Source: an uncultured Isosphaeraceae bacterium
GTDB lineage: Bacteria; Planctomycetota; Planctomycetia; Isosphaerales; Isosphaeraceae
DNA: 17,863 bases
Direction of reading: 5' to 3'
Assembly (NCBI GenBank): GCA_937858365.1
Contig: CALLYK010000373.1
Location: 1-17,863 of the forward strand
Part shown: positions 1 to 17,451 of the stretch, piece by piece
How the letters are laid out: each line of letters begins with the position of its first letter
Position numbering within the stretch: the first letter of the stretch is position 1
The notes under the pieces: model-generated
Database searches by the model: none
What the model saw: the letters and a program-made list of their open reading frames with translations, nothing else
Told to the model about the DNA's origin: nothing
Translations under genes and position numbers: made by a program

Positions 1-78
1 CCCCACGTTGAGGAGATCCGCACCGAGGCAGGTCGGTGCACGGTCATCGTCGACGACGTACGGCTGGAAACCCGCTAG
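1..78 (+). CDS. Possible 3' end of an upstream gene. Frame 1 is open from nt 1 and reads ...PHVEEIRTEAGRCTVIVDDVRLETR before TAG at 76-78.
   Basis: Frame 1 is open from the window edge to TAG at 76-78. Codon third positions are strongly G/C, as in the other genes here. The stop lies immediately before the AT-rich promoter island. The fragment is too short to identify. Confidence 0.25.
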   Translation, partial: PHVEEIRTEAGRCTVIVDDVRLETR

Positions 79-80
79 GG

Positions 81-110
81 TTGACAAATTATCGCAAAGT
101 TTAATATAAT
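81..110 (+). promoter_or_regulatory. Sigma70-like promoter, TTGACA (81-86), 18-nt spacer, TATAAT (105-110), for the SPFH gene.
   Basis: Perfect -35 and -10 hexamers with an 18-nt spacer. They sit inside a roughly 50-nt AT-rich island (about 75-130) in an otherwise GC-rich sequence. The predicted TSS is near A117. An extended T-run (ctcttttttt, 131-140) follows. Confidence 0.55.
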
Positions 111-116
111 TTCGGC

Positions 117-281
117 ATGCGGTTTTGTGCTCTTTTTTTCGTCGCCTGCGCCTCTGCCCCTAGCCCGTCGTCCACGCCAACGCCCCCAACTCCGACCCCA
201 ACCCCGACCCCAACCCGGCACGGCCGCTCTCGTCCTCCACTCCGACGCCCGCTGAGGAAGGACCAAACCAATGAACATTAA
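117..281 (+). other. Candidate leaderless upstream ORF (54 codons) overlapping the SPFH gene start. Peptide: MRFCALFFVACASAPSPSSTPTPPTPTPTPTPTRHGRSRPPLRRPLRKDQTNEH.
   Basis: ATG at 117-119 is about 7 nt downstream of the -10 hexamer, so it coincides with the predicted TSS. The frame stays open to TAA at 279-281, which is 8 nt past the SPFH ATG at 271. A hydrophobic N-terminus is followed by a (TP)n, Pro-rich tract. Caveat: the C-rich composition lacks stop codons by chance. Confidence 0.2.
178..222. repeat. C-rich leader tract with tandem 11-mer CCGACCCCAAC x2 (about 193-214). The complementary strand carries five or more G3-5 runs (G-quadruplex-capable).
   Basis: The + strand reads cgcccccaactccgaccccaaccccgaccccaacccgg. 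The minus strand reads ccGGGttGGGGtcGGGGttGGGGtcggagttGGGGGcg. It lies between the promoter and the SPFH start codon. Confidence 0.6.
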
Positions 282-1935
282 CTGGCGCCAAATCGCGATC
301 ACGGGTGGCTCGGTCCTCGTGGCCCTCGTGGTCGTCCTATATGTGGGTGTTTGGCAGTGGATGGTCTGTCGCCACGAAGTCCCCGCCGGACAAAGTCTAC
401 TCCTGAACTATCGTGGACCGTGGCCATTTGGCAGCGTCCCACTGGCGTCTCCGGGCACGCTCGTCTCGGTGGACAAGTGGGGTCGTCCCGAGAAAGTCGG
501 CATCCTCGAAGTGATGCCCGGGCCGGGCCGGCACTTCTATTCCCCCTTGGAATATCGGGTCGAGTACGTGCCCGACGTACTGATCAAGCCGGGTGAGATC
601 GGCGTGGTCACCGCCTTGGTCGGCAAAGACTCCCCCGCGGGCGCCTTCGTCGCCGAGGAGGGCTTCAAAGGGGTGCAGCGCAAGCTGCTCACTCCCGGAC
701 GTTACCGGATCAACAAATACGCATATCAAGTCGAAGTCAAACCGATCTCAGCCTGCGTCGGGTCGGGGGGTGGGGTCGTTCGCGAGAAGGACTCGGCGAC
801 ATTGATCCCTCCAGGTTACGTAGGTGTGGTCACGAACAGGCAGCCCAAGGCGGGAGAACTCGCGGGCATTCAGCCCGACGTCCTCCAACCGGGCATCTAC
901 TACATCAACCCGGCCGAGAAGCAGCTCGACATCGTCAGCATCGGCTTCAACGAAACGACGCTCATGGTGGAGTTGGCCAAAGACAGGCAGGGCAAGACCC
1001 TCTTCGCGCCCAGGAACGAGACGGTGGTCGGCGGCGCCGTCGCCGAACTGCCGATCCCGCCCGACCCGGTTTATGTGGAAGGCAAAGGCATCCACTTCCC
1101 CTCCGTGGACGCATTCGACATCCACATGGACTTCACCGCGATCTGGGGCATCATGCCCGAACAGGCCCCCGACGTCGTCCGTCAGTTCGGCGAGCTGAAG
1201 GACGTGGATGAGAAAGTCATCCAGCCGCAAATCATGTCGATCTGCCGCTTGCAGGGTTCCAAACGAGGAGCGGTGGACCTGCTCGTGGGAGACTCCCGCG
1301 AGGCCTTCCAAACCGACACGGCCGAAGAACTCGACCGCGTGCTCGCATCGAAGAACCTCAAGCTGCTCTTCGGTCTGACTCGGCACATTTACGTCCCAGC
1401 GCCGGCGCGCGCCCGGATTCAGCGGGCCAAGATCGCCGAGGAGACCAAGCGCACGCGCGAGCAAGAGCAGCTCATGCAGAAGGCCGCCGCCGACCTGGCC
1501 GAGGCCAAGGAGAAAGTGCTTTACGCCGAGCGGCAAACCGAGGTCGAAACGGAGAAGATGGTGGCCGAGACCAAGGCCGAGGGAAGCAAGAAAGCAGCCG
1601 AGATCGCCGCGGAAAGCGAAAAGCTGACCGCCAAGATCGACGCCGAGACGGCCCAGGTCCAAGCGCAGATCACCAAGACGACCCGTGAGGCCGAGGCCAA
1701 GAAGGTCGAGCTCTCCAGCCAGGCGAAGGCCGAGCTCTCGCGCCTCCAGGTCCAGGCTTTGGGTGGTTCGGATGCCTACAATCGCTACATGTTCGCGGAC
1801 AAACTCCCGGAAGACCTGCGACTGGGCGTCTTCTACGCGGGCCCGGGCACCTTCTGGACCGACCTGAAGGGGTTCGAGCAAATCCTCACAGGCAAGCTCG
1901 TCTCCGACCAGATGGCCAAGCCGCCCGCCCGCTGA
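271..1935 (+). CDS. SPFH/band-7 family membrane protein with a flotillin-like C-terminal coiled coil (554 aa).
   Basis: ATG at 271 is preceded by GAGGAAGGA (254-262), 8 nt upstream. There is an N-terminal TM helix (ITGGSVLVALVVVLYVGVWQW). Three tandem beta-hairpin-like repeats follow (PGxxGVVT ... PGxYxINP), like the start of an SPFH domain. The canonical SPFH core is present (TLMVELAKD ... HFPSVDAFDIHMDFTAIWGI ... LASKNLKLLFGLTRHIYVP). The EA/K-rich coiled coil is flotillin-like (AKIAEETKRTREQEQL ... AEAKKVELSSQAKAEL). Confidence 0.7.
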   Translation: MNINWRQIAITGGSVLVALVVVLYVGVWQWMVCRHEVPAGQSLLLNYRGPWPFGSVPLASPGTLVSVDKWGRPEKVGILEVMPGPGRHFYSPLEYRVEYVPDVLIKPGEIGVVTALVGKDSPAGAFVAEEGFKGVQRKLLTPGRYRINKYAYQVEVKPISACVGSGGGVVREKDSATLIPPGYVGVVTNRQPKAGELAGIQPDVLQPGIYYINPAEKQLDIVSIGFNETTLMVELAKDRQGKTLFAPRNETVVGGAVAELPIPPDPVYVEGKGIHFPSVDAFDIHMDFTAIWGIMPEQAPDVVRQFGELKDVDEKVIQPQIMSICRLQGSKRGAVDLLVGDSREAFQTDTAEELDRVLASKNLKLLFGLTRHIYVPAPARARIQRAKIAEETKRTREQEQLMQKAAADLAEAKEKVLYAERQTEVETEKMVAETKAEGSKKAAEIAAESEKLTAKIDAETAQVQAQITKTTREAEAKKVELSSQAKAELSRLQVQALGGSDAYNRYMFADKLPEDLRLGVFYAGPGTFWTDLKGFEQILTGKLVSDQMAKPPAR

Positions 1936-1982
1936 CCGTGTGTCGACGGCCGGCGATTCGCTGACATTGGAACAATTGGCGC

Positions 1983-2025
1983 GGGGCGGCATGAGCACGG
2001 ACTTGTGATCATGCCGCCCTTTTCC
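1983..2025 (+). terminator. Rho-independent terminator after the SPFH gene. An 11-12 bp GC-rich stem has a 14-nt loop and a TTTTCCATTTCC tail.
   Basis: GGGGCGGCATGA (1983-1994) pairs with TCATGCCGCCC (2009-2019), followed by tttt (2020-2023). It lies 48 nt after the TGA at 1933-1935. On the other strand the flank is not U-rich, so it is mainly a + strand terminator between convergent genes. Confidence 0.6.
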
Positions 2026-2035
2026 ATTTCCTGGT

Positions 2036-3268
2036 TCAAGGCGTCGGTCCGCAGAGGGCCGCGACCAGGCTGCGAACGAACGGCTCCACGTCCGTGACCA
2101 AACCGATGGTCTGGAAGGTCCCTCGGTCCGTGAGTTTGGTCACGGTGGCCGGGTTGATGTCCACGCAGACGACCTTCACCCCAGCCGGCAGCAGGTTGCC
2201 CGTGGCGATCGAGTGCAGGGTCGTGGCGATCATCAGGCAGAACCCGACGCCCCCATGGATCAGGCGCCGCATTTCGGCCTGGGCCTTCAGGACGTCGGTG
2301 ATCACCTCCGGCAGTGGGCCGTCGTCGCGTATCGAGCCGGCCAAGACCATCGCCACGTTCTTTTGAACGCATTCATACATGATCCCTGACTTGAGCAGCC
2401 CCGCCCGCACGGCCGCGGCGATGCCGCCGGCGCGTCGGATGGTATTGATCGCCCGCAGGTGGTGTTCGTGACCGTGTTCCACCGCCTCGCCGCGATCGAG
2501 CGAGACCCCGAGCGAGGTGTTGAAGAGGGCCTGTTCAATGTCGTGCGTGGCCAGCGCGTTGCCCGCGAAGAGCACGTCCACCCAGCCGCCGCGAATGAGT
2601 TCGGCGACGTGCGCCGAAGACCCTGTGTGGACGATCGCCGGCCCGGCTACGAGCAGGACCTTCCTCCCTTCCGCGCGGGTCGCACGCATGAGGTCGGCCA
2701 CGGTTTGGAGGCTTGCCGCCTTGGGTTTTTCGCTGGAGACGTTCGAGTTCATGAAGCCGAAGACCTGGGCCTCGCGCGGCCGGTCGATCGGCACGACGCG
2801 CACGCCGCCATGCCCCACCACGAACGCCTGACCAACCGTGACGTCGGTCATGGGCACACACCAGGCGGTCTTGCGTTCGATGTCCACGGCGATGCCGCAG
2901 TCCATTTCCTGGTCGGCCACTTCAACCCAGCGACCGGCGAGACGCACCTGCGTGGGTTGGTTGGTCGTGCTGTAGAAAGCGTCGGGGAACGCGCCCGCGA
3001 TGTCGGCCGGCACCAGATGTGCGTCTTCGGGGTGAACAGGCATGGCGCCGTGTTCGACGAGGTCGCCCAAGATGTCGTCGAGTTGCGCGGCCGAGTCGGC
3101 CTGGACGGCGATGCGCGCGTAGCTCGCGTCCACGCGACGCGCCCCGACCTTGCACTCGCGGATCTCGAACGAGCCACCCATGAGGAGGATGCGGTCGAGG
3201 ATCTTGGGCAAGAGGAGGGAGTCGATCAGATGGCCGCGGACCTCGATTTCCTCGGAAACGCCAGGCAT
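2036..3268 (-). CDS. TIGR00300 / LOR-SDH bifunctional-enzyme conserved-domain family protein (about 410 aa). Possibly an archaeal-type NAD-dependent ornithine cyclodeaminase-like enzyme.
   Basis: The six-frame ORF runs to 3412. The likely true start is the internal ATG at 3268, preceded by GAAGGGGG 7 nt upstream. The N-terminus (MPGVSEEIEVRGHLIDSLLLPKILDRILLMGGSFEI) matches my recollection of the family's conserved N-terminus (GH[IL]IDS..LPK.LD.I...GG.F). A Gly-rich dinucleotide-binding-like region follows (KVLLVAGPAIVHTGSS ... VLAGSIRDDGPL). Family assignment is from memory, not a search. Confidence 0.55.
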   Translation of the reverse strand: MPGVSEEIEVRGHLIDSLLLPKILDRILLMGGSFEIRECKVGARRVDASYARIAVQADSAAQLDDILGDLVEHGAMPVHPEDAHLVPADIAGAFPDAFYSTTNQPTQVRLAGRWVEVADQEMDCGIAVDIERKTAWCVPMTDVTVGQAFVVGHGGVRVVPIDRPREAQVFGFMNSNVSSEKPKAASLQTVADLMRATRAEGRKVLLVAGPAIVHTGSSAHVAELIRGGWVDVLFAGNALATHDIEQALFNTSLGVSLDRGEAVEHGHEHHLRAINTIRRAGGIAAAVRAGLLKSGIMYECVQKNVAMVLAGSIRDDGPLPEVITDVLKAQAEMRRLIHGGVGFCLMIATTLHSIATGNLLPAGVKVVCVDINPATVTKLTDRGTFQTIGLVTDVEPFVRSLVAALCGPTP

Positions 3269-3356
3269 GACGGGCCCCCTTCGCGGGAATGGAAGTGGCC
3301 CGCATTGTAACCGACGAAGGCCCCGTGCTGGGTAGCTTGGACGATCAACGCCCCGT

Positions 3357-3701
3357 TCAAGGGCCGATGTCTTTGGCCGTGATCTTGCGTTGTTCAACCA
3401 TTTGATAGACACGCGATGTCAACGGGGTGAGGATGCCGAAGATCATGGTCCCGAGAAGCCCGGGCAGCCCCAGACCATACCAAACGCCGAATGGTTGACC
3501 CATGAGAAGGCCCGCCACACCGGCGCAAAAGAGGACAGCGCAGACCCCGGTCGTCGTCCACATGACCCCGGTGAGAAAGACACGCCCGCGACCGAGGGGC
3601 GCGAGCGTGCCCATCAAGGTCCCCATCACTCCTCCCGCGACCCCCAAGAGCGTTCCGGGGAGCCAACTATAACGGATCGCGTCGAACCAAGGTTCGCTCA
3701 T
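3357..3701 (-). CDS. Small integral membrane protein (114 aa, about 4 predicted TM helices), function unknown.
   Basis: Start ATG at 3701-3699 follows SD AGAAAGAGG 7 nt upstream. The start overlaps the upstream gene's stop (ATGA, 3698-3701). Gly/Leu/Val-rich hydrophobic segments include LLGVAGGVMGTLMGTLAPL, VMWTTTGVCAVLFCAGVAGLLMG and LGLPGLLGTMIFGILTPL. Confidence 0.55.
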   Translation of the reverse strand: MSEPWFDAIRYSWLPGTLLGVAGGVMGTLMGTLAPLGRGRVFLTGVMWTTTGVCAVLFCAGVAGLLMGQPFGVWYGLGLPGLLGTMIFGILTPLTSRVYQMVEQRKITAKDIGP

Positions 3702-4015
3702 GGCCTGACCTCTTTCTTCAAGTCCTTCCGATGGGCCTCGATCAATTCGCGGGCCGTCGCGGGCGCGAGACGTCCATCGGCCACGAGCACGCGGACCATG
3801 CGCTCGAACGGACCATCCACGGTGAGATCATCCGCGGCCTGGACCTTGGCGATGAAGCGGTCTAAACGCGCCCGCACGGTGGGATAAGAAACACCGTACT
3901 CCGCCGCGAGGGCCTTCAAGGAACCGGACGCCACCACGAAACGCTTGAGAAATTGCCAATCCTCGTCATCAAGCGCCTCGACCCAGCCGGGAAGCGCGCC
4001 GGTGTCTCGCCCCAT
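3698..4015 (-). CDS. DUF2089-like small HTH protein (sigma70 region-4/LuxR-like helix-turn-helix). It lacks the N-terminal zinc ribbon of longer DUF2089 proteins.
   Basis: The six-frame track starts at a TTG (4018). The ATG at 4015-4013 with GAGGA 5 nt upstream is the more likely start. The motif DDEDWQFLKRFVVASGSLKALAAEYGVSYPTVRARLDRFIAKV matches the conserved DUF2089 core as I recall it. It is translationally coupled to the downstream membrane protein. Confidence 0.55.
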   Translation of the reverse strand: MGRDTGALPGWVEALDDEDWQFLKRFVVASGSLKALAAEYGVSYPTVRARLDRFIAKVQAADDLTVDGPFERMVRVLVADGRLAPATARELIEAHRKDLKKEVRP

Positions 4016-4039
4016 CAAGGTCCTCGCGACTGTCGCCGA

Positions 4040-4100
4040 ACCGACCGCGTGTCTCTATCCTTCGCTTCAATAAAGTGAAAGTCAAGATGAATTTTCTGAA
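4040..4100 (-). promoter_or_regulatory. AT-rich island upstream of the DUF2089 operon containing TTGACT (minus-strand sense). It is a putative promoter region.
   Basis: The reverse complement reads ...aaaattcatcTTGACTttcactttattgaagcgaaggatagagac... There is no clean -10 hexamer at 17 +/- 1 nt. It is one of only a few AT-rich islands in the window and lies directly 5' of the gene start at 4015. Confidence 0.25.
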
Positions 4101-4104
4101 AGTT

Positions 4105-4130
4105 GGGGCCTTTTCGAGATGCATGGCCCC
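4105..4130 (-). terminator. Candidate terminator hairpin for the giant gene. GGGGCC and GGCCCC form a 6-bp stem around a 14-nt loop.
   Basis: GGGGCC (4105-4110) pairs with GGCCCC (4125-4130), about 29 nt past the giant gene stop (4159-4161) in the minus sense. The following minus-strand tail is AACUUUCAGAAAAUUC, only weakly U-rich. Confidence 0.3.
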
Positions 4131-4158
4131 GTCATTACGAAGAATGGGGACACGGCAT

Positions 4159-7100
4159 TCACTCGGCGAACTTCCACGGCCCCGAGATCTCGACGTTGCG
4201 GACGCGCGTGGTGGGACTGTCGGCCCAGCGGAAGAGGCCGAAACGACGTGGGGCCCCTTTCTCCAGTGGCGCTTCGCCGAGCCTTTTGCCATTCAGCGTG
4301 ATCGACACCTTGTCGCCCGAAAGCGTGAGGGAGACCCGGTCCCATTCCTTTTCCTTGAACGGGAGCGGTCCTTTGTCGAAGCCGCTGAGTTCGGCGGTGT
4401 TGCCGGGTGAGAGGTCTTCCTGGCCGGTGCCGGGGTCCGTCAGGCGGTGGAGCTGCACACCTTCGGGCCCGAGCAGGAAGACTTGGCCGCCGATCGCCGG
4501 ATGGACCGAAGAGGGGCCCTTCTCGCCCCGAGCCTCATACGTGATCGTCTCGCCGTCGGCCATAGGCCGAGAGTGGAAGAGAGCGGTCTCGTAATCGACG
4601 GACGCGTTGGGGGCTTGCTTCCCGAGGACCTCCGTGTTTTGGGACTGCCAGAAAGAAGGCCAATTCGTGCCGCTCGGTGATCGGAGACCACTCCAGTCCG
4701 TCCACGTTCGCGGGCCGCTAAGTGCAACGCGATCCGGCACGGTGGGTCCCCCTTGGATACGGACGTCGCGCAGGGCGCCCTGGCCCGTGGCCGCCGACTT
4801 GAGGAAGAGCCAGGGAGACGCATCGCGCCGGATCGGTTCGTTGACGACCTGATGATCGGCGAGGAAGAACTGACAGCGCCCCCCCTTCACGACCATCCGG
4901 AAGGGGAGAAGTCCCCGCGCCGGGTCAACGGGTGGGTCGAGCGGGATCGTCCGCACCGCACCTCCGGCCGTGGTGAGTTGGGCATTCTTGCCCTCGGCGT
5001 CCACTTGAAGCGAGGTCCCAGCGTAATCGACGACGACCTGGTCGTCGCTCATCCCCTCGAGTAGGGCTTGGAAATCGAAGTCTCCCGTCAAGGGCGTTGC
5101 GAGGTACAGCCGCTCGGGACCTTGACCGGGAACATGGGCGATTCGGTGGTCCCGCTCTGTCCAAGTTGCCGGAAGCGAAGTCAAACTCGCCGCCCTGCTC
5201 GAATCACGTGAAGCGGTGAGCCAGCGTGAGCTTGGCGGGGAAAGGGCCTCGCCTCGCGCCAGCCGATCGCGTTCGAACGCGAGTCGCAGGGCGTCCAAGG
5301 TCGCCGGCGCGACGTACGGCTCGGGTTGTCCTTGCTGGGGAGGCTGGTTCTGTCGCCGGATCGGTGTTTTGGGCCCATCCGGCGGTCTCTTGGCCCGTTC
5401 TTTCAGAGCGTCGGCCAGCGGCGCCGCCGCTTCCAGGAGGTCGCGATTTGGGAGGACGCCGGCCAGAGCGAGCATCTCGGCCTGGCGCCCTTCCAGGGGC
5501 GCTTGGGGCGGCAGGGCCTTCGTCGCCTTGGTCAACTCCGCGAGCGTCGCGCGGGCCTCGTCGTTCCGGCCTTGTGCGCTCGCCACCAGCGTGGTCAGGG
5601 CCATTTTCACGCGGGCTTGAGGCTCGTCCTTCACGGGGACAGCAGCGAACTTTTCCGCGAGCTCGTCGAGCTTGCCGGCCTCGCGCGCGGCCGCGATCAT
5701 GTCGAAAACGGGAGAACCGAAGGTGCAGCCTTCCGGCGAAAAGACAGGGTATCGAGCGATACGCACGGACTCATGGGAGGCGGAAGGCAAGACCCATTCA
5801 ACGAGGCGCCTGTGGCGTTCCGCGGCGGGAAGGCCCTGGATTTCCCGGAGGAAGTGGGGGGCGTCGGCGATGACCGGGTAATCGCCGATCCAGGCCGCGC
5901 GAACGAGGCGCGCCGCCGGGTCGGGCGCGACCGCCGGTTCAAGAAGGTTTGCCGGCAGGGTCGCAGGCCAATCGCCGGTCAAGGTCGTCGCTCGGACCTT
6001 CACGCGGGTTTGGTCCTTGAAGTGAAAGAGGCCGAAAAGGCGGTCGTTCGCGGGCTCCAGCGGTCGTTCGGCGATCACCCGACCGTTGAGCGAAAGTGAA
6101 ACGGACCCGTCGCGCAGCGCGAGTTTGACCTCGTTCCAATCGTCCGCCTTGAGGGGCAGGGGGCCGGGGCCTTGCTTGATCGCAGGATCGTCCGCGACGT
6201 TGTTGATGGGCAGGCCCGTGGGGTCAAGGTCGGCCTTGTCGGTGATCCAGTGCGCCCGGACCCGATCCGGGTCGAGCTGGAAGACCAAGCGGCCGAGCGC
6301 CGGATGGACCATCTCGGCGCCCGGGACGTAATGGAACTCATAGGAGAGCGTATCCCCATCGCCGAGGGGCCTAACGAACCGGAGCAGGCTGGGTACGGAG
6401 TCGTCGGCGAGCGAGCCGATCGCGCGGTCGATGCGTTGGCCAATGATCACGCCATCGCCGGCTTCCCAGTCGAAGACGCGAGGCGCCGGCTCAGCGCCGC
6501 GCCGCTGATAGATGGCCTGAAACTCCTCGTCCGCGTCCCGCGACGACCTGCGAAGGACCGCGTCCTTACGAGGCTTGACCCTTTCTTTGAAGAAACGGGC
6601 CGACCATTGGCGCAGGTCGTCCCCTTGCAGCAGCTTCACGACGCGAGGGACTTCCGGCCTGCCGTCGATCCTCAAGTCGAGGAATCGCCCACCGGTAGCC
6701 TCCAGCGCGATCCAGGGAGACGATGGGCCTTTGGCCTCGTGAATCAGGCGGCCGTCGATCAGGAAGCGGGTGTGTTCGGGAGCGACGTCGATCGTGAGGC
6801 GAGTTGGTCCGTTTGAGGTGTTGGTGGGCAGGGCAGGGGAGACCGACTCGGAATGCGGTCCGATCATGCCGGGGCCGGCGAGACTGTCTTGGTTTCCCGT
6901 CCCGCCGTCAAACACGTAGTGTTGGCCTGGGGTCAAACCAATCGACTGCCCGCCGTAACTGAGGAGGCCCTGAAATGTGCGGACGTCGATCCGAAAAGTC
7001 CCCGTGATCGGGACCGCGAAGAAAAGGCACGAGTCATCGGGAGCACCCACATGGCCGAGCACGTCCTCCGCGAGCACCCAGCGAGCGACTTGCCCCGCCT

Positions 7101-10100
7101 CCGGGTGCGTTTGCGCCATCTCGTGCGGGGCCGGCCGCCAGAGAGCCGGCAGAGCGTCCGTGGGCGGTTGCGGGCCGACATCGGGGCCCGACCGCGCGTG
7201 ATTGAGAAGAACGGTCATCGCGCGGGAATTGATGGTGTTGCCGATGCGTCCGGCCAGGAGCTGGGCCTCGTTCCTCAGCGCCGGCACGCGCGCGGCCTCC
7301 TGCACGAGGAGCGCCTCGGGCCAATCTCGAGGCGCCTGGGTTTGATTCAGTTCATTCAGATAGACCGTTTGTTCTTGGGGCGAGCTCTGTCTCTTCTCGC
7401 GTTCCTCGCGGGCCGCGATGATCACGGGAAGGGCCTCTTCAGGCCGGCCTCGCGCGATTGCGACCAGGGCAACCAAGGCACCGGCCTGTTCGACCTTGGC
7501 GTCGGCTGCGTTGCGGGCCTCTTCGGCGAGTTCTTCTAGCTTACCGGCCTCGCGCGCCGCGGCGATCAGGGCCCCACTCGTCGAGACAATTCCATCCACC
7601 GCTTGAGGAGGTTGGGCCTTGAAGACGGCAGGGGTCTCATCTGTTGGGGCCCCGCAGGCCAGGAAGCGCACGAGTTTCCGGTCGTTGGTCGGAAGCGTCC
7701 AGGTCCTGAGTCGTTCATACCGCTCGGCTGCGGGGAGCCGCGCGAGCAAGTACGAAAGGCGTTGCAATGCCGGCGCGATGCTCGGCTCGTTGTAAGGGAC
7801 GACGGGAAGGTCGGCGAACTTGCCGAGGGCGAGCAAGGCCTCGTCGAGACGGTCGGCACGCGCGTACTCCACGGCGACGCGCGCCAAGGCGGTCTTCACT
7901 GGACCCGCCGACTGTTCGAAACTCTGGTTCGGAAGCCTCGGTAGTTCCTCGATGGCCTTCTGGTAGTCGTCAAGAAGGGCCGAAGCGGCGTCGGCCTTGT
8001 TCTTCGCGAAGTAGTGCCGCGCCAGGGCGATGCTGAGGTCTCCACCGCCGGCCGTGATCTGTCCGGCCGTGTTGAGTCGCTTGATGGCCCGCGCCACCAC
8101 GAGTTCGGCCGCTTCCGCGCAGGTGGGCGTCTTCAGGGCGGGTAAGGCCGCGTGGCAGGCCAGTTCGGCCGTGTTTTGCAGTGAGTCTTTTTCCAAACGC
8201 GCGGCCAGGTCGGCCAGGCCCTTGGAAGCAGACACGGAATCATCGGCTTTGAGGGCCAACAATGTCCTAAGGACCTTCAGCGGCAATTCGGCCAGGGGTT
8301 CGGCCGCACGGGCCTCGATCCGGCGTTCCAGGTCTTGCCGGGCGTTCGCGCGTAACGCCCAGGTTGCCAGGATCGCGCCGACGCTTCGCGGCGACGTTGT
8401 TCTCGATGCGGCCAAGGAGCTCGGATATAGGAAGGCCTCGCGCGGCCTCGCCTCGGGCAAGACGACCTCGCGAAGCACCGCGTAAACGTCGGCGGGCGGC
8501 ACCTTCGCTTCGACCCAGGCTCGCTCCAGTGGAATGATCGCCTGGATGACCGACTCGGGGCCGGACGTCTGGGCCGGTTCGTTCTGACCATAAACGCTGA
8601 CCACTCTCGTGAGGCGAAGATTGTTCGGCTCCACGTTGATGGGCGTGATCGGCGGCCCGCCGCGCAGGGCGTCGCGCGTGGCCCGTAGAGAGAGGGCCCC
8701 CAGGCCGTTTTCAGCGGCCAGCTTGGCGACCTCAAGGGCCTGTTGAAACCGATCAGCCGTCGTACCGATGGCCTGGGGCTGACTCACAGTGGTGAACGTG
8801 GTTAGCGCTCCAGAAGTGCTCGAAATGGCGAGGGGAGCGGCCGTGGCGGGCGCGGCGGGTTGAAGCCTCACGGCAGCCACGGCCCTGGTCATGACGGCCG
8901 TCGCCGCCGGGGCTGGGACGGACGGCGGGGGTGGAGGCGGTGCCAGTGACGTGCCGCCTGTTGGGGCGGTACCACCCGTCTTGGACGGGACAAGGATTGA
9001 TTCCAGGAGTTCCGTCCAATACGCTTCCGCGCGGGCCTTGTCGCCGGATTCGAGTGCGAGCTGGCCCCACTCTCGCAGGATCGCTTGCGTCCAGATCGCG
9101 TCGGTCTGGCGACGCGCCGCCTCACGGGCCCGCACGGCAAGCGTCTCGCCGATGGGCCGGAGCGACTCGTTTTTCAAGCAGAGTCGGGCCACCGGCCAGA
9201 CCCCCAGCCATTTCGCGGCCACGTCGCGCTGGCGGCTGTTGGCTCGGGCCCCCTTGGGCAGTTCTTCCAGGGGCGACCGATCCACCAAGGTGATGAGTCC
9301 TTTCAGCGCCGAATCGATGCCTTCAGCCTTGCCTTCCGCGAACGCGGCCAGGGAAAGGGCGACGTGTGCGCTCAAGTCGTCCGGCTTCTCGCTCGCGAGG
9401 CGCTTGAGTTCGTCGTTGGCCTCCTTGAAGAGTCCCGGTGTCCTCACGGCGCCCGTCAAGGTGTCGCCGAGAAGGCTGATGAGCGTCGCGTTACGCAGGT
9501 CGCGTGGTTGAACGAGAAGGACCAGGTCGAGGGCCTCGCCATGAGGGGCCGTCGCCCCAACCGGCCAGACGAGGCTGCGCAACGTGCGTTCACGGTCCTC
9601 CTGCTTTTCTAGGGCCCTAAGGGCGACCTGGACTTGATCGCGAAGCTGTTGGCTGAATTGGTCTTGGCCCCCGAACATCGAGGCGGCCGCGTTCAAGGTC
9701 GACGTGTCGGCGAGGGCCCCGTTGTAGATCCGAAGGGAGTCGGCGGGGAAGCCTGCTTGGAGTAGGAGCATGCCTCGCGACATGGACGCGTTCACTCGGC
9801 GATAAGCCTGGTACGCGGGGTCATTCACGTAGTATTCGTCATTGAGTCGATCGGGCCGAAGCAGGAGTGCCCGGGCTTCTTCCGGCCGCTCCGTGCGCCG
9901 ATAAAGCTCGGCCAGGCGACGGGCGATCGTGTTCTCCATGTCGTTGGGATCATTCTTAAAGGTCGGAGTCGCGAGGGTCTCCTTGTACAGGCGCTCGGCG
10001 AGCGGCTGCGTGGCGGGGTCGTTTTCCAACTCTTGCCCGAGCGCCAGGACGGTCGAAGACGTTCGCGGCGAGTTCTCGTCCAAGAGGGCGAAGAGTTCCG

Positions 10101-13100
10101 CGATCGCTTGAGCGCCTTGGGCGGTCCGGCCCGCTCGGAGGTCGATGATCGCCCGGATGCCCTTGCCGCCGTACCATTCGGGCCAGCGTTTCGTCGCCTC
10201 GTCGATCTCCGCGGCGATGGCGTCGAGCTTTCCTTGTCGGTCGGCTACCTGGAGCAGTCGGGCGAGCATGGTCATCGACTGACCGTTCCTGGAATACGAC
10301 ATGATGTTGCTGTCGAGCCCCGACCACGGTGCCGGGGGCCCGGCGCTCGCCTTGGGAATGAGGTAGTCGTGAACGTATTCGTAGAGTTCGGGGAGTTCCC
10401 AAACCTCGTCGCTCGGGCTGTTTAACAACATCTCATAGCGCGAGTTAGGGAGAGACTTCCAGCCCTTCTTGAAGATCTCCAGCGACAGCTCGCGCGTGCT
10501 CGAGTCGTTTTCCAGCGACATCATCAGGTTGGTGATCGCGTACGTCTGACCACGCGCCATCGCCCGTAGGTCGAGGTCCCGAACCAGCGCGATCAACTCG
10601 TCACGCTTGCCGGCCCGCTGGAATGCCTGGATCATCTGATACGCATAACGGCCGAACTGCGCCGGGTCTTTCTTGATGGCGACGGCGTAATGCTCGGCCG
10701 CCGTGGCGAAGTCCTGGGCCTGATAGGCCGTGTTGGCAATCTGTTGACGGAGTGCCGCGTCGTCGGGACGGAGTTCCAGGAGCTTTTTCTGGACCTCCTT
10801 CACCTTGTCGCGCTTGCCGGCCGCGTTGTAGTACATCGAGAGGGTTTGATAGAGGCCGATCGAGCTCGGCGAGCGCGCGACCTGACTTTCCAGCCGCTCG
10901 ATCTGTTCATCGAGCTTGCCAGAGCGCGAGAGTAACTGAAGGGCCTGCATCTGGGCCGCGTCGATCGACCCTGAGACGACATACGGCTGGTTCGAGCGTT
11001 GCGGCGAGCGGCGCATGATTTGGTAGGCCACTTGCAGGGCCTCTTCCATGCGGTCTTGCCGCTGATATTGGGCCATCAAGTTGGCCAGGGCGTTAGGGTC
11101 GTTGCCCGATCGGCGGCGGGCGCGACCCAGCACGGCCTCGGCCAACTCGTGCATGCCAAGCTGGTGCATCTGCTGGGCGAGTTGGACTTGAGTGTTCGCG
11201 TCCAGACGCAGGCCGAAAAGGCGTTCCGCTGCCTTCCGCGCCCGATCGACGTTGCCGCCCAACACGGCCAGGCGCAAGGCCAGCAACTCGCGACGCTGCA
11301 TCAGCTTCTGGTCGGCCGGCTCGACGGAATCGACCAACGCGAGCGCTTCCAGCGGCTCGTTGCGATTGGCCCGCAGTTCCGCCAGCGAGAGCTTCATCTC
11401 CACGTCGTTGGGGACGCTCTCGACCACCGTCGTCAGATCGCGCAGGGCCTCGTCTTTCTCGTCGTTCCACCACTTGATGTAAGCGAGGGCCAGGCGCTCG
11501 TAGTTAGGGTCGCGCATCGCGGCCTTCAGGCGGTCCTCGAGGTGCTTGGTCAGGTCGCTCAGGACGTCGCCTTGGCGATAGACCTCATAAGCGTTCCGCA
11601 AAACGCCGATGGCGGCCATATCGAAATAGGCCCCAGGCATGGGGAAGTCCAAGTTGATAAACCGCGAGGTGTTCCTGCCCAGAGAGATCGACACGCCCTG
11701 CCGGTTCTGGAATGTGCTTGAGGAGGCGCTTGCGCCCTTGGCCCGGCGGGCCACTCGTTCGGGTGCGGAAAGGCCGTCCAGGGCGTGGTCCAGAAGGCGG
11801 AGCACGTCGGGCATCCGCTTGTTCTCGTAACAATGGCCCATCGCTTGGGTGAAGCCGTTCAGCGCCATGCTTACCATCGTCGCCCCGCTTGGTTGCCTAG
11901 CGGTCAGGGCCCGATCGTACTTGTCCGCGAGGACGATCAATCGGTCGATGTCGCCACGGGAGGCCGCGAGGTTGAGGGCCACACTCAAACTGGACGGGTC
12001 GTTCGCGCTTTCCGTCATTTCGCGATAGAGGGCCTCTTCGGCCTCAGTACGCTTGGCCCGCTTCAACTCGGTGATCAAGCTGTTCGTGACGGCCCCAGCC
12101 CATTCCGGTTCGCGCTTCCGGAGCGTCTCATAAGAGGCGACGAGGGTGTCGAGCTCGTCGTCGGGAAGGGGGGGCGTCCGATCGACGTTTCCCTGAGTGG
12201 GCACGGCCGCGCGCAAGAGGCCCGCCGAGGCCCCAGGGTTGGTCCGGCCGGCCACCGATTGCAAGAACGCCCAGAGGCACTGCGGGTCGTTGGGGGCCGA
12301 TCGTGCCAGGAGCAGCCCCGCTTTGTAAAATTCCTTGGGCTCGTTGCGCAGCGATGTCAGATAAAACCAGTCGCGGACGGCGCGCGGGTCGGCGTTGGGG
12401 GCCTCGGCCGCTTCACGCAGCTGCTTCAAGAGGGCCTCGTCGGTCTCGTCGCGCTGGGCGACCACCACGAGCCAGGCCAGCGCGGCTTGACGCGCCTGAC
12501 CGTAGTCGTAGGGCGCCCAGGCCCGGCCCGATTGTGACATCTGCATCGAGTAATTCGCGTAGCGTGGGTCGAGTCCGGTGGCGCCGCGGACCTCGTAGTT
12601 CTGCGCGGCGCGTCGATACATCGGGTTCGATGTGTAGAGTGACTGGTTCGCCTGGGCGAGCGCGCTGACACCCGCCGGACGACCGCCCGACGTCTTCTTC
12701 CGCGTCCTCTCGATCAAGTTCAACTGGTCATCGTCCACGCGGAGGGAGAGCAGGTCGCGGAAACGTTGGGACGACTCCTTCAGCCTCTCGGCTTGCTGAA
12801 GCGCGAAGGCCTCTCGGTAGAGAAGGTCCCAGTTGGCCGGGTCCTTGCGCAAGAGTTTCTCCGTGATCGAGAGCACCGTCTCGTGCTTGCCCGCGGCGAT
12901 GAGGCTGTCGATCGCCTGGAGGACCCGATGGACCTCGGCCTCGTCGTTGGCGACGGCCATCCAAACGTTCTCGGCCTCCGTGGTCTCACCGGCCTTTGTG
13001 TAGAGCGTGGCCAAGCGAGTCGTGCCGTCGAATCCTGGGGCCACATCGTTGATTTGCTTCTGGTATCGCGCGGCCGAGTTGAAGTCTCCCTCGGTCTCCG

Positions 13101-15609
13101 CCAGGTTGGAAAGCTGCTGAAGGAGCTGTGTGTCGCGAGAGTTGGCCGCGAGCAGGCTTTCCAACTGCTGACGCGCGGCCATATAGTCGCCGGCCGACGT
13201 GTACGCTTGCGCCAGGCAGGCCGCTTTCTCGCGTGGCTGCTGCTGAACGTCTCCCTCTTGAAAGGCCCGCTCAATGCGCGCCGTCAGGCGGTCGAACTGG
13301 TTTTGCTGAAGGTAGAGGTTCGCGAGCTTGGCCACGATGCCCACCTTGGCGTCGAGCGCGGGTGTCTTGTCGAAGGCCCGCCAATAAATCTCGATCGCTT
13401 CTTCCGTGCGAAACTGACCGGCGAGTGCGTCGCCCAGCGTGAGGGCGGCCTTGGGGTCGGCCTCGTTCAAGCGCGCCGCGCGGCGGAGGGCCTTCAGCCC
13501 TTCCTCGGACTCGCCCAACCCAAAGCAAAGCTCGGCGAACGCCTGGTAGTGTTCCGGATTGTTGGGGGCCGCGGCGAGCAGTTCGCGCCCCGCCTTCAGG
13601 GCCTCATCACGACGGCCAAGGCGAGCCTCGAGGCGAGCGATCGCGGTGAGGTGCTCGGTCCGCGCCCTACGGTCGATCGCGGCCAACTTGCGGAAGAGGT
13701 CGGCGGCGGCGCCGAGATTTCCCGACGATTCCTCGAAGCGCGCCGCGGCCACGTGCGCCGGGACCGACTTCGGCTCGAGTTCGATCGCCTTGCGGATCGC
13801 CGCGAGCGCGTCGGGGAGACGTTGGGCCGCCTCGTCATATCGTGCCAGTTTCAGGTATCGTTCCGAGGTCGCTTCCTTGCCGGCATTGAGTTCCCCTTTC
13901 AACGTCTCGATCATGGCGCCGAGCTTACCGCCGGCTTGCAGGTCCTTGATCCGCGCGGTGAGCACGGCCTCGCGCTGCTCGGGATCGTCGGCGAGCGGTT
14001 CGGCCGCGTCGAGCTCGGCGAGGGCCTCGTCGTAACGCTCCAATTGCGCCAGCAAGTCGGCGTGTTTGATGCGCGGCTCGAACGACTTCGGGTCCATCCC
14101 CACGGCCTCCGCGGCGACCTTCTCGGCCTCTTTCCTGTAGCCAAAGCCGGAAAGGACCTCGGCCAGGCGCGCCAGGTTTGGCGCTGTGCGGTTTGGTCCT
14201 TCAGCCATCGCCGACCAAGCGGTCAGGGCCTCCTCACCGCGCTTCTGAGAGTGCAGGTTTTCGCCGAGATACTCGCGGAATTGCGGGGCGTCGGGGGCCA
14301 GACCCACGGCCTTGCGATAGAGTGAGAGGGCCTCGTCGTTGAGTTCGGCCTTGCGGAAGAGTTCGGCCACCTGGGCGGCGACACCCGCGTCTTTGGGGCG
14401 GGCCTCCAGGAGCTTCCGCCATACGGTCGCGGCGGCCTGCTTGCGCTCGACTTCCGGCCGCGCGGGGTCGCGCAGAATCAAGCGGCCCCAGTCGCGGATC
14501 GTGTCGGGATTGCCGGGGTCGGTCTTGGCCATTTCCTCGTACTGGCCGGCGGCCTCGCCGAACTTCTTCTCGGCCACGAGTTGCTCGACCAGGGCCAGCC
14601 GAAGTTCCTTGCGCGAAGGGGCCAACTTGACCGCCGCGGTAAGGGCCTCGCGCGCCTCGGGGGCCCGCCCAAGCGACGCGAGCACGCGGGCCCGGCGCGC
14701 GATCGCGTCGATGTCGTCCGGGTGCTTCTTGATCCAGCCTTCGTAATAAGTGGCTAGGCCGTTTTGGTCGTCGTTGCGCAGGAAGACCTCTTCCACCTTG
14801 CGTCTGACCTCCTTATGCAGCCAGCTCTCGGGGTTGAGGTTGGCGAGAAGGCCCTCGAAGTCGGCGACGGCATCGGTCTTCTTGCCCAGGCGGACCTTCA
14901 AATCGGCGACCTCCATCTTGTATTGGACCTTGCGATACGGGTCGCGCGCGGCGGCGGCGAGTTTCTCATAACGAGGCAAGGCCAGGGCCGACTGCCCCTC
15001 CTCGGCGAGCGTCAGGGCGATCTGCTCGGCCACGCGCGCGTCTTCGGGGAACTGCTTTTCCAGCCGTTCCCAAACCTTGAGGGCCTCGGCATCGCGACGG
15101 GCACGCTGATGGACGCGGCCCAGGGCCTGATACATCTCCATCGAATCGGCGCGGGCCGGCTTGCGCGCCAAGGCCCGCTCGAAGGCGTCGACGGCCGCGT
15201 CGGGGCGACCCACCAGCACGAGTGTCTGACCCAGATAGAACGAAGCCAGGGCGTCGTCGGGCCGGGTCTTTTCGGCCTCGCTGAAGGCGGTCACGGCGGA
15301 CGCGTCACGCCCGCGTTGCGCCTCGATCAGGCCAAGGACCATCCACGAGGCGCCGTCTTTGGGGTCCTGCGCCGTCTTTTCTCGATAGCGCGCGGTGAGC
15401 TGGTCGAGCGTGCCCCGTTCGACATGGTAGCCGTAAACGCGATCCAGCGCGGTGCCGCGCTTGGGTGTTTTTTCAAGCAGGCCGACGAACCGGTCGACCA
15501 CCTTCGCCTCGCGTTCGGAATCGGCATCGTCTTGGCCGAAGGCCGCCAAGGTGGCCAAGACCGTCAGGCTAAGACCCGTCGACCACCATCGGGACGCACG
15601 AAGACGCAT
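4159..15609 (-). CDS. Giant secreted multidomain protein (about 3,817 aa). It has a signal peptide, a TPR-like solenoid of about 2,200 aa, a Pro-rich linker, an alpha-helical region of about 500 aa, and two tandem modules of about 600 aa. Each module ends in two LamG/DUF1080-like jelly-roll domains. The architecture recalls the Rhodopirellula DUF1581/DUF1583 paralog families.
   Basis: One uninterrupted minus-strand frame covers 11.45 kb. The track's start (15786) is a 5' extension. The ATG at 15609-15607 has AGGGAGGA 7 nt upstream and is followed by a Sec-type signal peptide (MRLRASRWWSTGLSLTVLATLAAFG|QDD). Nt about 15530..9000 hold degenerate 34-residue A/L/E/R-rich TPR-like repeats. The linker TGGTAPTGGTSLAPPPPPPSVPAPAATAV is at about 8885-8960. 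Each C-terminal module holds two domains ending in DUF1080-like motifs (SPWIALEATGGRFLDLRIDGRP, FGLFHFKDQTRVKVRATTLTGDW, SPWLFLKSAATGQGALRDVRIQGGP, FGLFRWADSPTTRVRNVEISGPW). Confidence 0.85.
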   Translation of the reverse strand: MRLRASRWWSTGLSLTVLATLAAFGQDDADSEREAKVVDRFVGLLEKTPKRGTALDRVYGYHVERGTLDQLTARYREKTAQDPKDGASWMVLGLIEAQRGRDASAVTAFSEAEKTRPDDALASFYLGQTLVLVGRPDAAVDAFERALARKPARADSMEMYQALGRVHQRARRDAEALKVWERLEKQFPEDARVAEQIALTLAEEGQSALALPRYEKLAAAARDPYRKVQYKMEVADLKVRLGKKTDAVADFEGLLANLNPESWLHKEVRRKVEEVFLRNDDQNGLATYYEGWIKKHPDDIDAIARRARVLASLGRAPEAREALTAAVKLAPSRKELRLALVEQLVAEKKFGEAAGQYEEMAKTDPGNPDTIRDWGRLILRDPARPEVERKQAAATVWRKLLEARPKDAGVAAQVAELFRKAELNDEALSLYRKAVGLAPDAPQFREYLGENLHSQKRGEEALTAWSAMAEGPNRTAPNLARLAEVLSGFGYRKEAEKVAAEAVGMDPKSFEPRIKHADLLAQLERYDEALAELDAAEPLADDPEQREAVLTARIKDLQAGGKLGAMIETLKGELNAGKEATSERYLKLARYDEAAQRLPDALAAIRKAIELEPKSVPAHVAAARFEESSGNLGAAADLFRKLAAIDRRARTEHLTAIARLEARLGRRDEALKAGRELLAAAPNNPEHYQAFAELCFGLGESEEGLKALRRAARLNEADPKAALTLGDALAGQFRTEEAIEIYWRAFDKTPALDAKVGIVAKLANLYLQQNQFDRLTARIERAFQEGDVQQQPREKAACLAQAYTSAGDYMAARQQLESLLAANSRDTQLLQQLSNLAETEGDFNSAARYQKQINDVAPGFDGTTRLATLYTKAGETTEAENVWMAVANDEAEVHRVLQAIDSLIAAGKHETVLSITEKLLRKDPANWDLLYREAFALQQAERLKESSQRFRDLLSLRVDDDQLNLIERTRKKTSGGRPAGVSALAQANQSLYTSNPMYRRAAQNYEVRGATGLDPRYANYSMQMSQSGRAWAPYDYGQARQAALAWLVVVAQRDETDEALLKQLREAAEAPNADPRAVRDWFYLTSLRNEPKEFYKAGLLLARSAPNDPQCLWAFLQSVAGRTNPGASAGLLRAAVPTQGNVDRTPPLPDDELDTLVASYETLRKREPEWAGAVTNSLITELKRAKRTEAEEALYREMTESANDPSSLSVALNLAASRGDIDRLIVLADKYDRALTARQPSGATMVSMALNGFTQAMGHCYENKRMPDVLRLLDHALDGLSAPERVARRAKGASASSSTFQNRQGVSISLGRNTSRFINLDFPMPGAYFDMAAIGVLRNAYEVYRQGDVLSDLTKHLEDRLKAAMRDPNYERLALAYIKWWNDEKDEALRDLTTVVESVPNDVEMKLSLAELRANRNEPLEALALVDSVEPADQKLMQRRELLALRLAVLGGNVDRARKAAERLFGLRLDANTQVQLAQQMHQLGMHELAEAVLGRARRRSGNDPNALANLMAQYQRQDRMEEALQVAYQIMRRSPQRSNQPYVVSGSIDAAQMQALQLLSRSGKLDEQIERLESQVARSPSSIGLYQTLSMYYNAAGKRDKVKEVQKKLLELRPDDAALRQQIANTAYQAQDFATAAEHYAVAIKKDPAQFGRYAYQMIQAFQRAGKRDELIALVRDLDLRAMARGQTYAITNLMMSLENDSSTRELSLEIFKKGWKSLPNSRYEMLLNSPSDEVWELPELYEYVHDYLIPKASAGPPAPWSGLDSNIMSYSRNGQSMTMLARLLQVADRQGKLDAIAAEIDEATKRWPEWYGGKGIRAIIDLRAGRTAQGAQAIAELFALLDENSPRTSSTVLALGQELENDPATQPLAERLYKETLATPTFKNDPNDMENTIARRLAELYRRTERPEEARALLLRPDRLNDEYYVNDPAYQAYRRVNASMSRGMLLLQAGFPADSLRIYNGALADTSTLNAAASMFGGQDQFSQQLRDQVQVALRALEKQEDRERTLRSLVWPVGATAPHGEALDLVLLVQPRDLRNATLISLLGDTLTGAVRTPGLFKEANDELKRLASEKPDDLSAHVALSLAAFAEGKAEGIDSALKGLITLVDRSPLEELPKGARANSRQRDVAAKWLGVWPVARLCLKNESLRPIGETLAVRAREAARRQTDAIWTQAILREWGQLALESGDKARAEAYWTELLESILVPSKTGGTAPTGGTSLAPPPPPPSVPAPAATAVMTRAVAAVRLQPAAPATAAPLAISSTSGALTTFTTVSQPQAIGTTADRFQQALEVAKLAAENGLGALSLRATRDALRGGPPITPINVEPNNLRLTRVVSVYGQNEPAQTSGPESVIQAIIPLERAWVEAKVPPADVYAVLREVVLPEARPREAFLYPSSLAASRTTSPRSVGAILATWALRANARQDLERRIEARAAEPLAELPLKVLRTLLALKADDSVSASKGLADLAARLEKDSLQNTAELACHAALPALKTPTCAEAAELVVARAIKRLNTAGQITAGGGDLSIALARHYFAKNKADAASALLDDYQKAIEELPRLPNQSFEQSAGPVKTALARVAVEYARADRLDEALLALGKFADLPVVPYNEPSIAPALQRLSYLLARLPAAERYERLRTWTLPTNDRKLVRFLACGAPTDETPAVFKAQPPQAVDGIVSTSGALIAAAREAGKLEELAEEARNAADAKVEQAGALVALVAIARGRPEEALPVIIAAREEREKRQSSPQEQTVYLNELNQTQAPRDWPEALLVQEAARVPALRNEAQLLAGRIGNTINSRAMTVLLNHARSGPDVGPQPPTDALPALWRPAPHEMAQTHPEAGQVARWVLAEDVLGHVGAPDDSCLFFAVPITGTFRIDVRTFQGLLSYGGQSIGLTPGQHYVFDGGTGNQDSLAGPGMIGPHSESVSPALPTNTSNGPTRLTIDVAPEHTRFLIDGRLIHEAKGPSSPWIALEATGGRFLDLRIDGRPEVPRVVKLLQGDDLRQWSARFFKERVKPRKDAVLRRSSRDADEEFQAIYQRRGAEPAPRVFDWEAGDGVIIGQRIDRAIGSLADDSVPSLLRFVRPLGDGDTLSYEFHYVPGAEMVHPALGRLVFQLDPDRVRAHWITDKADLDPTGLPINNVADDPAIKQGPGPLPLKADDWNEVKLALRDGSVSLSLNGRVIAERPLEPANDRLFGLFHFKDQTRVKVRATTLTGDWPATLPANLLEPAVAPDPAARLVRAAWIGDYPVIADAPHFLREIQGLPAAERHRRLVEWVLPSASHESVRIARYPVFSPEGCTFGSPVFDMIAAAREAGKLDELAEKFAAVPVKDEPQARVKMALTTLVASAQGRNDEARATLAELTKATKALPPQAPLEGRQAEMLALAGVLPNRDLLEAAAPLADALKERAKRPPDGPKTPIRRQNQPPQQGQPEPYVAPATLDALRLAFERDRLARGEALSPPSSRWLTASRDSSRAASLTSLPATWTERDHRIAHVPGQGPERLYLATPLTGDFDFQALLEGMSDDQVVVDYAGTSLQVDAEGKNAQLTTAGGAVRTIPLDPPVDPARGLLPFRMVVKGGRCQFFLADHQVVNEPIRRDASPWLFLKSAATGQGALRDVRIQGGPTVPDRVALSGPRTWTDWSGLRSPSGTNWPSFWQSQNTEVLGKQAPNASVDYETALFHSRPMADGETITYEARGEKGPSSVHPAIGGQVFLLGPEGVQLHRLTDPGTGQEDLSPGNTAELSGFDKGPLPFKEKEWDRVSLTLSGDKVSITLNGKRLGEAPLEKGAPRRFGLFRWADSPTTRVRNVEISGPWKFAE
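4162..5950 (-). repeat. Module copy 2 of the duplicated unit, forming the C-terminus of the giant protein.
   Basis: Motifs in the same order: ...LPAAERHRRLVEWVLP ... IAAAREAGKLDELAEKFAAV ... PLTGDFDFQAL ... SPWLFLKSAATGQGALRDVRIQGGPTVP ... TYEARGEKGPSSVHPAIGGQVFLL ... WDRVSLTLSGDKVSITLNGKRLGEAPLEK ... FGLFRWADSPTTRVRNVEISGPW. DNA of the paralogous segments 5659-5704 and 7528-7573 is about 80% identical by hand alignment. Confidence 0.5.
5951..7850 (-). repeat. Module copy 1 (intragenic, protein level) of the duplicated unit of about 600 aa in the giant gene.
   Basis: Order of motifs: ...LPAAERYERLRTWTLP ... IAAAREAGKLEELAEEARNA ... PITGTFRIDV ... SPWIALEATGGRFLDLRIDGRPEVP ... SYEFHYVPGAEMVHPALGRLVFQL ... 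WNEVKLALRDGSVSLSLNGRVIAERPLEP ... FGLFHFKDQTRVKVRATTLTGDW. Boundaries are approximate (+/- 100 nt). Confidence 0.5.
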
Positions 15610-16904: not shown

Positions 16905-16937
16905 TTCTCCAACCATTGCCGAGGGCCCATCCGGCTC

Positions 16938-17426: not shown

Positions 17427-17451
17427 TCCCTTGGGACCTTTAGGAGAGCGC

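Follow-up and report, generated by a model that had tools for sequence, protein, structure and literature searches.

The closest described counterparts of the locus reported here are sandwich-fold proteins, among them the binding module CBM66, which binds fructan termini, and the Bat (Bacteroides aerotolerance) operons of other phyla. The latter carry genes for MoxR, DUF58, the von Willebrand factor type A (VWA) proteins BatA/BatB, and the tetratricopeptide-repeat (TPR) proteins BatB/C/E. It has been proposed that the von Willebrand factor and TPR domains of Bat proteins assemble into a membrane-associated complex (PMC3557215). Giant genes are frequent in planctomycetes (PMC5177795), although the protein described here is not treated in that work, since TPR and DUF domains are unmentioned there. 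A full-text literature search on DUF1581/DUF1583, the families to which the present modules belong, returned nothing beyond a passing reference to DUF1583 in a paper on cyanophage genomics. Here we analyzed a 17,863-nucleotide stretch of DNA, hereafter the window, from an uncultured Isosphaeraceae bacterium (assembly GCA_937858365.1, contig CALLYK010000373.1, positions 1 to 17,863). On its minus strand lies a giant gene for a TPR protein that ends in two tandem modules, M1 and M2. We consider it likely, with good but not full confidence, that M1 and M2 are an ancient fixed pair forming a four-sandwich, probably glycan-binding head on an exported TPR scaffold, which is often linked to a Bat-like operon.

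Two tandem modules at the end of the giant protein

The longest frame of the giant gene in the list of open reading frames (ORFs) and their translations spans 4159–15786 on the minus strand and comprises 3875 residues, whose numbering is used below. Its last ~1,210 residues are two tandem paralogous modules, each with a helical part of ~200 residues followed by two β-sandwiches:

5950–7791, minus strand: module 1 (M1), aa 2666–3279; module profile 870 bits
7192–7791, minus strand: M1 helical part, about aa 2677–2865
6634–7140, minus strand: M1 sandwich 1, about aa 2883–3051
5977–6468, minus strand: M1 sandwich 2, about aa 3107–3270
4162–5949, minus strand: module 2 (M2), aa 3280–3875; module profile 962 bits
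5257–5919, minus strand: M2 helical part, about aa 3290–3510
4723–5223, minus strand: M2 sandwich 1, about aa 3522–3688
4183–4695, minus strand: M2 sandwich 2, about aa 3698–3868

The boundaries of the M1 parts were taken from the secondary structure of the double-module model described below. The profile places M1 and M2 within 20 residues of the borders given in an earlier note, which had been made by eye on the same DNA and had claimed a tandem duplication of a ~600-residue unit. The stretch named there, 4162–7850, corresponds to the ~1,230 residues at the C-terminus.

A self-BLAST of the whole protein gave the identity match only, and the protein was split in two halves for the M1/M2 comparison. 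BLASTP of aa 2501–3279 against aa 3280–3875 then yielded two colinear high-scoring segment pairs, one in the β-rich part (29% identity over 387 columns, E = 3e-30) and the other at the start of the helical part (34% identity over 143 columns, E = 1e-9). The Smith-Waterman score between M1 and M2 was 398, against 45.9 ± 6.4 for 200 shuffles (z = 55), while equal-length segments from elsewhere in the giant protein, used as a control, scored 46–58 against either copy. A global alignment gave 174 identities in 539 aligned pairs (32%). These values bear out the proposed tandem duplication. All six motifs from which it had been recognized were found, in order, in both copies, and the colinear similarity extends well beyond these short motifs. 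Neither the module profile nor Pfam detected a third copy in the giant protein, and a degenerate copy sought upstream of M1 returned only insignificant TPR-like matches.

Both modules belong to families catalogued in Pfam. DUF1581 (PF07619; gathering score 27 bits) was matched at 46.6 bits in M1 (aa 3006–3069) and 44.3 bits in M2 (aa 3630–3698). DUF1583_N (PF20407; gathering score 22.9 bits) was matched at 147.7 bits in M1 (aa 3131–3275) and 109.4 bits in M2 (aa 3732–3872), the matches spanning profile positions 6–149 of 150. The DUF1583 C domain (PF07622), which is found in the relatives P0064, P0015, P0028, and P0047, has no Pfam match in the window protein, which stops 3 residues past the end of the DUF1583_N match of M2.

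At the DNA level, the best-conserved patch has one copy in each module:

7528–7573, minus strand: best-conserved DNA patch, M1 copy; encodes GALIAAAREAGKLEEL
5659–5704, minus strand: best-conserved DNA patch, M2 copy; encodes FDMIAAAREAGKLDEL

The two copies are identical at 37 of 46 positions, which agrees with the earlier estimate of about 80%, and they encode the motif IAAAREAGKL[DE]EL. By blastn, only two short colinear patches were significant between M1 and M2 (50 nt at 84% and 38 nt at 84%), the remaining DNA being too diverged for detection. In both module classes defined below, A2744, L2750, and L2753 of this motif reach a conservation of 88% or more. The 80% patch can thus be ascribed to constraint, as it encodes the best-conserved motif of the family. 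Altogether, a conservation of at least 80% in both the M1 and M2 classes was seen for 47 columns, of which 46 carry the identical residue; they include the polar residues R, Y, E, H, H, N, N, and R in DUF1583_N.

Distribution and age of the duplication

The module profile detected 1,568 representatives, i.e., 50%-identity clusters, at E ≤ 1e-3, and 901 of them at E ≤ 1e-30. Each of the best 150 relatives carries two modules and none carries more, as four apparent triples turned out to be split modules. A word-indexed protein search returned one match for M2 alone and five for the double-module alignment, annotated as “hypothetical protein” where named. Three architecture classes were distinguished: giants of about 3,750–3,930 residues that end right after M2, to which the window protein belongs; giants of about 4,100 residues with an extra DUF1583 C domain of ~235 residues; and proteins of about 1,800 residues in which M1 and M2 are joined to the DUF1583 C domain and, in some cases, to PD40, LamG, or HEAT domains.

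Eight loci were recovered from genomes, all of them from Planctomycetota (Planctomycetales, Pirellulales, Pirellulaceae, Lacipirellulaceae, Fuerstiella), so that the family appears to be restricted to planctomycetes. Five of the eight encode two-module giants (from Planctomycetales, Pirellulales, Pirellulaceae, Lacipirellulaceae, and one Planctomycetota metagenome-assembled genome), four of which are 3,800–4,170 residues long with the modules at about aa 2600–3900, while the fifth ends at a contig edge. The remaining three loci encode single-module proteins of 740–1,200 residues, one of M1 type (L007) and two of M2 type (L002 and L008). The comparison of orthologs for one versus two modules, which had been suggested as a check, hence gives two modules in all of the best 150 relatives and one in three of the eight genome loci.

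Best matches were then compared for 116 two-module relatives. Every M1 found its best match in an M1 (116/116) and all except one M2 in an M2 (115/116), the sole exception matching best a single-module fragment that is itself of M2 type. Mean bit scores were 257–281 within a class versus 159 between the M1 and M2 classes, and a neighbor-joining tree split M1 from M2 in 99 of 100 bootstrap replicates. M1 of the window protein is 33–38% identical to M1 of other lineages and 28% identical to its own M2. M1 and M2 therefore constitute separate orthology classes across Pirellulales, Planctomycetales, and others, which places the duplication before the spread of the family. Judged from these sequence comparisons, it is an old, fixed, single event, and the doubled arrangement is common to all high-scoring relatives recovered. 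The alternatives left side by side in the earlier note, a fairly recent duplication or strong constraint, can accordingly be separated. Constraint stands because no other motif of the family is as well conserved as the one encoded by the patch, and recency falls with the ~30% identity, the class structure, and the bootstrap value. As an architectural trait, the duplication is old and ordinary, and the family that shows it is already catalogued in Pfam.

Predicted fold of the modules

An AlphaFold2 model of M2 was obtained with a predicted local distance difference test score (pLDDT) of 79 and a predicted template-modeling score (pTM) of 0.68. It shows helices at module residues 10–231, followed by β-sandwiches at about residues 240–410 and 415–590. 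A Foldseek search with this model found 4jqt (E = 1e-12), then tandem galectins and pairs of laminin LG domains (LG4-5). The closest solved folds of the sandwiches are DUF1080 “putative glycosyl hydrolases” and CBM66, and the module has the concanavalin-A-like sandwich fold in common with DUF1080 proteins of solved structure. The composition that had been read from the letters alone, a helical region plus two jelly-roll domains, is consistent with both the model and the Foldseek matches. Sandwich 1 and sandwich 2 are also related to each other (hhalign probability 97.8%, E = 1e-12). Because the two sandwiches of each module are mutually homologous, the head holds four related sandwiches that arose by two nested duplications.

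A model of M1 and M2 together (1,200 residues) gave a pLDDT of 77 and a pTM of 0.70, the latter being not below that of M2 alone, and the pLDDT of the first 30 residues of M2 rose from 45–64 when modeled alone to 80–84 when modeled with M1. The maintained pTM and the increase at the start of M2 suggest a defined mutual arrangement of the two modules, in which M1 and M2 may make up one rigid pseudo-heterodimeric head. No solved structure was found with the overall two-module arrangement (query-normalized TM-score ≤ 0.12).

The two classes differ in the linker between the sandwiches, whose median length is 36 residues in the M1 class versus 15 residues in the M2 class. In the window protein, the inter-sandwich segment of M1 is a charged stretch, KERVKPRKDAVLRRSSRDADEEFQAIYQRRG (6469–6633, minus strand; aa 3052–3106), part of which was modeled as a helix with low confidence. 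Since the classes are conserved to an equal degree, share conserved columns, and yet differ systematically, for example in this linker, we infer that M1 and M2 are differentiated, both functional halves rather than redundant copies. Both copies keep the same conserved residues and a lectin-like fold, and the bivalent binding or processing by doubled heads that had been suggested for them is plausible on the models.

Layout of the giant gene

The start of the giant gene was examined by comparison with the full-length orthologs listed, which are colinear from the N-terminus and have a hydrophobic N-terminus shortly before the motif RFLxxLEKNPRRGTALDRVYGYHVERGTLD. In the window protein, the same motif is preceded by a stretch starting at Met60, MRLRASRWWSTGLSLTVLATLAAFGQDD. 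Met60 (nt 15609) is thus the probable true start, from which a protein of 3816 residues results, and codons 1–59 of the longest ORF (15610–15786, minus strand) are probably untranslated, as the Met60 stretch aligns with the N-termini of the orthologs. The parts preceding M1 are as follows:

15535–15609, minus strand: predicted Sec-type signal peptide or N-terminal anchor, about aa 60–84; basic n-region, hydrophobic stretch, AFG/QDD
10579–15372, minus strand: TPR-rich helical scaffold, about aa 139–1736; Pfam TPR_19, TPR_14, TPR_16, TPR_8, TPR_CcmH_CycH, and ARM_TT21_5th
8761–8976, minus strand: Ala/Pro/Thr-rich low-complexity stretch, putative linker, aa 2271–2342; 17 Ala, 13 Pro, and 12 Thr of 72 residues

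The same basic and hydrophobic arrangement is found at the N-terminus of most of the ~3,800–4,500-residue orthologs listed, and this shared, signal-peptide-like feature suggests that the giant protein is probably exported. TPR profiles above the Pfam cut-offs were TPR_19 (116 bits), TPR_14 (97 bits), TPR_16, TPR_8, and TPR_2, while NCBIfam gave only sub-threshold matches to TPR proteins. The modules therefore follow a long TPR stalk, as had been proposed, the Pfam TPR matches extending from about aa 139 to 1736. The low-complexity stretch at 8761–8976, which contains PPPPPP, separates the TPR part from the helical region preceding M1 and is probably a flexible linker. Many ORFs of 100–519 residues (e.g., 12766–14325, plus strand) overlap the giant gene on the antisense strand or in other frames. 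The GC content of the window is about 64%; such ORFs are expected in DNA of 65% GC, and nothing suggests that they are genes.

Gene neighborhood

The genes on both sides of the giant gene were assigned as follows:

15897–16904, plus strand: MoxR-type AAA+ ATPase, divergent from the giant gene; Pfam AAA_3 (216.8 bits) and AAA_lid_2
17452–17640, plus strand: beginning of a DUF58 gene, 63 codons; aa 1–63 matched at 75% identity by the DUF58 protein of locus L083 in tblastn
2036–3412, minus strand: ArgZ-like/LOR-SDH family enzyme, downstream of the giant gene; PF21570, 331 bits
271–1935, plus strand: Band 7/SPFH protein, downstream of the giant gene

Metagenomes were scanned with the N-terminal motif, which gave 80 loci, 67 of them with enough upstream sequence. 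In 31 of these 67, a MoxR gene (67–83% identical) is divergent from the giant gene and starts within 1.5 kb; the genome locus L006 also has the operon divergent and adjacent. Where the sequence allows, MoxR heads a five-gene operon for MoxR, DUF58, a BatA_N/VWA protein, a VWA/GATase1-like protein, and an uncharacterized ~560-residue protein. Loci with this divergent Bat-like operon include L006, L011, L015, L016, L019, L020, L024, L027, and L083. Other arrangements were also found: the operon tail is co-directional and just upstream of the giant gene in L033, L058, and L077, and the ~560-residue homolog and the VWA/GATase1-like gene lie just downstream of it in L005. That the linkage takes several forms points to a functional association of the giant protein with the Bat-like operon, although it is absent from about half of the loci.

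In the window itself, MoxR is present but DUF58 is recognizable only over its first 63 codons, after which the window ends or diverges; the tblastn query from L083 showed no similarity past about nt 17640. Within 17452–17863, the frame nevertheless stays open after this position, and the GC content there falls to 0.54–0.57; the break may stem from inserted sequence, a rearrangement, or an assembly join. The distance from the MoxR stop to the DUF58 start is about 550 bp (16905–17451), compared with roughly 10–130 bp in most relatives, and this gap holds an ORF of 162 residues (16938–17426) with no Pfam match. The downstream genes were rejected as functional context, as their positions are unconserved in the related loci examined: an ArgZ-like gene in the window, HAD and NorB in L001, and a xylose-isomerase-like gene in L005.

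Proposed mechanism and alternative explanations

From these features, a working mechanism can be drawn. The giant protein would be exported via its N-terminal signal peptide to the planctomycetal periplasm or cell envelope, where its TPR region of ~1,600 residues may scaffold partners, possibly the VWA proteins of the neighboring operon, in analogy to the TPR proteins of Bat systems. M1 and M2 would pack as one rigid pseudo-heterodimeric head, and its four DUF1080/CBM66-like sandwiches would engage a polymer through multivalent binding, the most likely ligand being an envelope glycan or a substrate glycan. Several points weigh against this reading. PF06439 (3-keto-disaccharide hydrolase/DUF1080; gathering score 26.8 bits) is not reached by the window protein, which scores 13 bits (E = 0.11) in M2 only, and a sequence search of the Protein Data Bank (PDB) gave only a marginal DUF1080 match (3s5q, E = 0.72). 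The structural matches also include the catalytic sandwiches GH16 and PL7 and the protein-binding sandwiches LamG and SPRY. The rigid head is deduced from pTM and pLDDT values of models built on shallow alignments of 16 and 25 sequences, and the signal peptide from reading the sequence by eye. About half of the loci have no MoxR operon beside the giant gene, and single-module proteins of both M1 and M2 type exist. In addition, the literature searched gives no ligand, activity, or localization for DUF1581/DUF1583.

Four other explanations were weighed. That a recent duplication or ongoing gene conversion between the copies explains the 80% DNA patch has next to no chance of being correct. The two short colinear patches of 84% identity, 50 and 38 nt long, would be compatible with such an event, but the protein identity is about 30% and the other DNA is undetectable by blastn. 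Moreover, M1 of the window is nearer to M1 of other lineages (33–38%) than to its own M2 (28%), best matches stay within the classes, and the M1/M2 split has 99/100 bootstrap; the residues of the patch are conserved family-wide, and codon choice is narrow in a genome of 65% GC. That the pair stems from a gene fusion joining two single-module paralogs after their divergence, instead of from a tandem duplication within one gene, is suggested by the existence of M1-type (L007) and M2-type (L002 and L008) single-module proteins. We give this origin a small chance, because M1 followed by a directly abutting M2 was seen in every two-module protein examined across otherwise differing architectures, and this constant order is most simply explained by a single event. 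The single-module proteins may be secondary losses, and L007 ends about 300 bp before a contig end, so that an M2 gene may follow.

The function of the sandwiches is a separate question. They may be catalytic, forming a carbohydrate-processing pair of 3-keto-disaccharide hydrolase (PF06439) or GH16/PL7 type tethered to the scaffold. Relatives indeed reach PF06439 at 54–57 bits over the whole protein (E = 1e-14 to 1e-15), GH16 glucanases, PL7 lyases, and “putative glycosyl hydrolases” are among the structural neighbors, and the polar residues of DUF1583_N listed above are conserved in both classes. We hold this to be unlikely, however, since the window protein is below the PF06439 threshold, the DUF1080 crystal structures matched are structural-genomics entries labeled merely as “putative,” and the nearest functionally defined neighbor, CBM66, is a binding module. 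Alternatively, the heads may be protein–protein domains of LamG/SPRY type that attach the TPR scaffold to other proteins, for example the VWA/MIDAS proteins encoded in the MoxR operon, and bind no glycan. This accords with the MoxR-DUF58-BatA/VWA-VWA synteny conserved in several arrangements and with structural matches to laminin LG, neurexin LNS, and SPRY domains, as well as to regions of ryanodine receptors, in which solenoids are combined with SPRY domains; we regard it as improbable all the same. The ancient M1–M2 pair as a probably glycan-binding head on an exported scaffold is the reading that we retain.

A more far-reaching proposal is that the ~3,800-residue TPR protein with its fixed M1–M2 head of four sandwiches is the missing scaffold and receptor subunit of a planctomycete-wide envelope machine that includes the MoxR-DUF58-BatA/VWA-VWA operon, with M1–M2 as an obligate pseudo-heterodimer recognizing an envelope or substrate glycan. 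We offer it tentatively, as possible rather than probable. If true, Bat-like systems would gain a defined ligand-binding component. The present protein is very costly and widely conserved in planctomycetes. Within a large family, one subfamily is recognized as a colinear ~3,800-residue TPR protein, predicted to be exported and often linked to a Bat-like operon. From the linkage and the fold assignment, the testable hypothesis follows that the protein binds glycans in the envelope. The pair, fixed throughout the family, and the association with Bat-like operons are leads of moderate interest.

Comparison with known systems

With respect to the Pfam families DUF1581, DUF1583_N, and DUF1583 C, both modules of the window protein pass the first two, and their domain order is as in the relatives. 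The DUF1583 C domain follows M2 in the ~4,100-residue giants and in the ~1,800-residue paralogs, whereas the window protein is without it. The window pair is placed at the end of a ~2,600-residue TPR/helical protein. Compared with DUF1080/PF06439, represented by the tandem-domain protein BT3469 (PDB ID: 4jqt) and by 3hbk, the window protein stays under the family threshold in sequence and its module has an extra helical region; a hydrolase role is putative on both sides. CBM66 (PDB ID: 4b1m), legume-type lectins, and tandem-repeat galectins such as galectin-8 share only about 9–13% identity with the module. For tandem-repeat lectins of the galectin-8 type, the likeness is at the fold level only (Foldseek E of about 4e-8, 9–10% identity).

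A TPR protein with such a lectin-like head is not described in the Bat literature consulted here. The operon neighboring the giant gene in the relatives shares MoxR (AAA_3), DUF58, BatA_N plus VWA, and a VWA/GATase1-like protein with the Bat operons. The locus would differ from them in that its TPR component would be a separate, divergently encoded protein of ~3,800 residues carrying a lectin-like double head.

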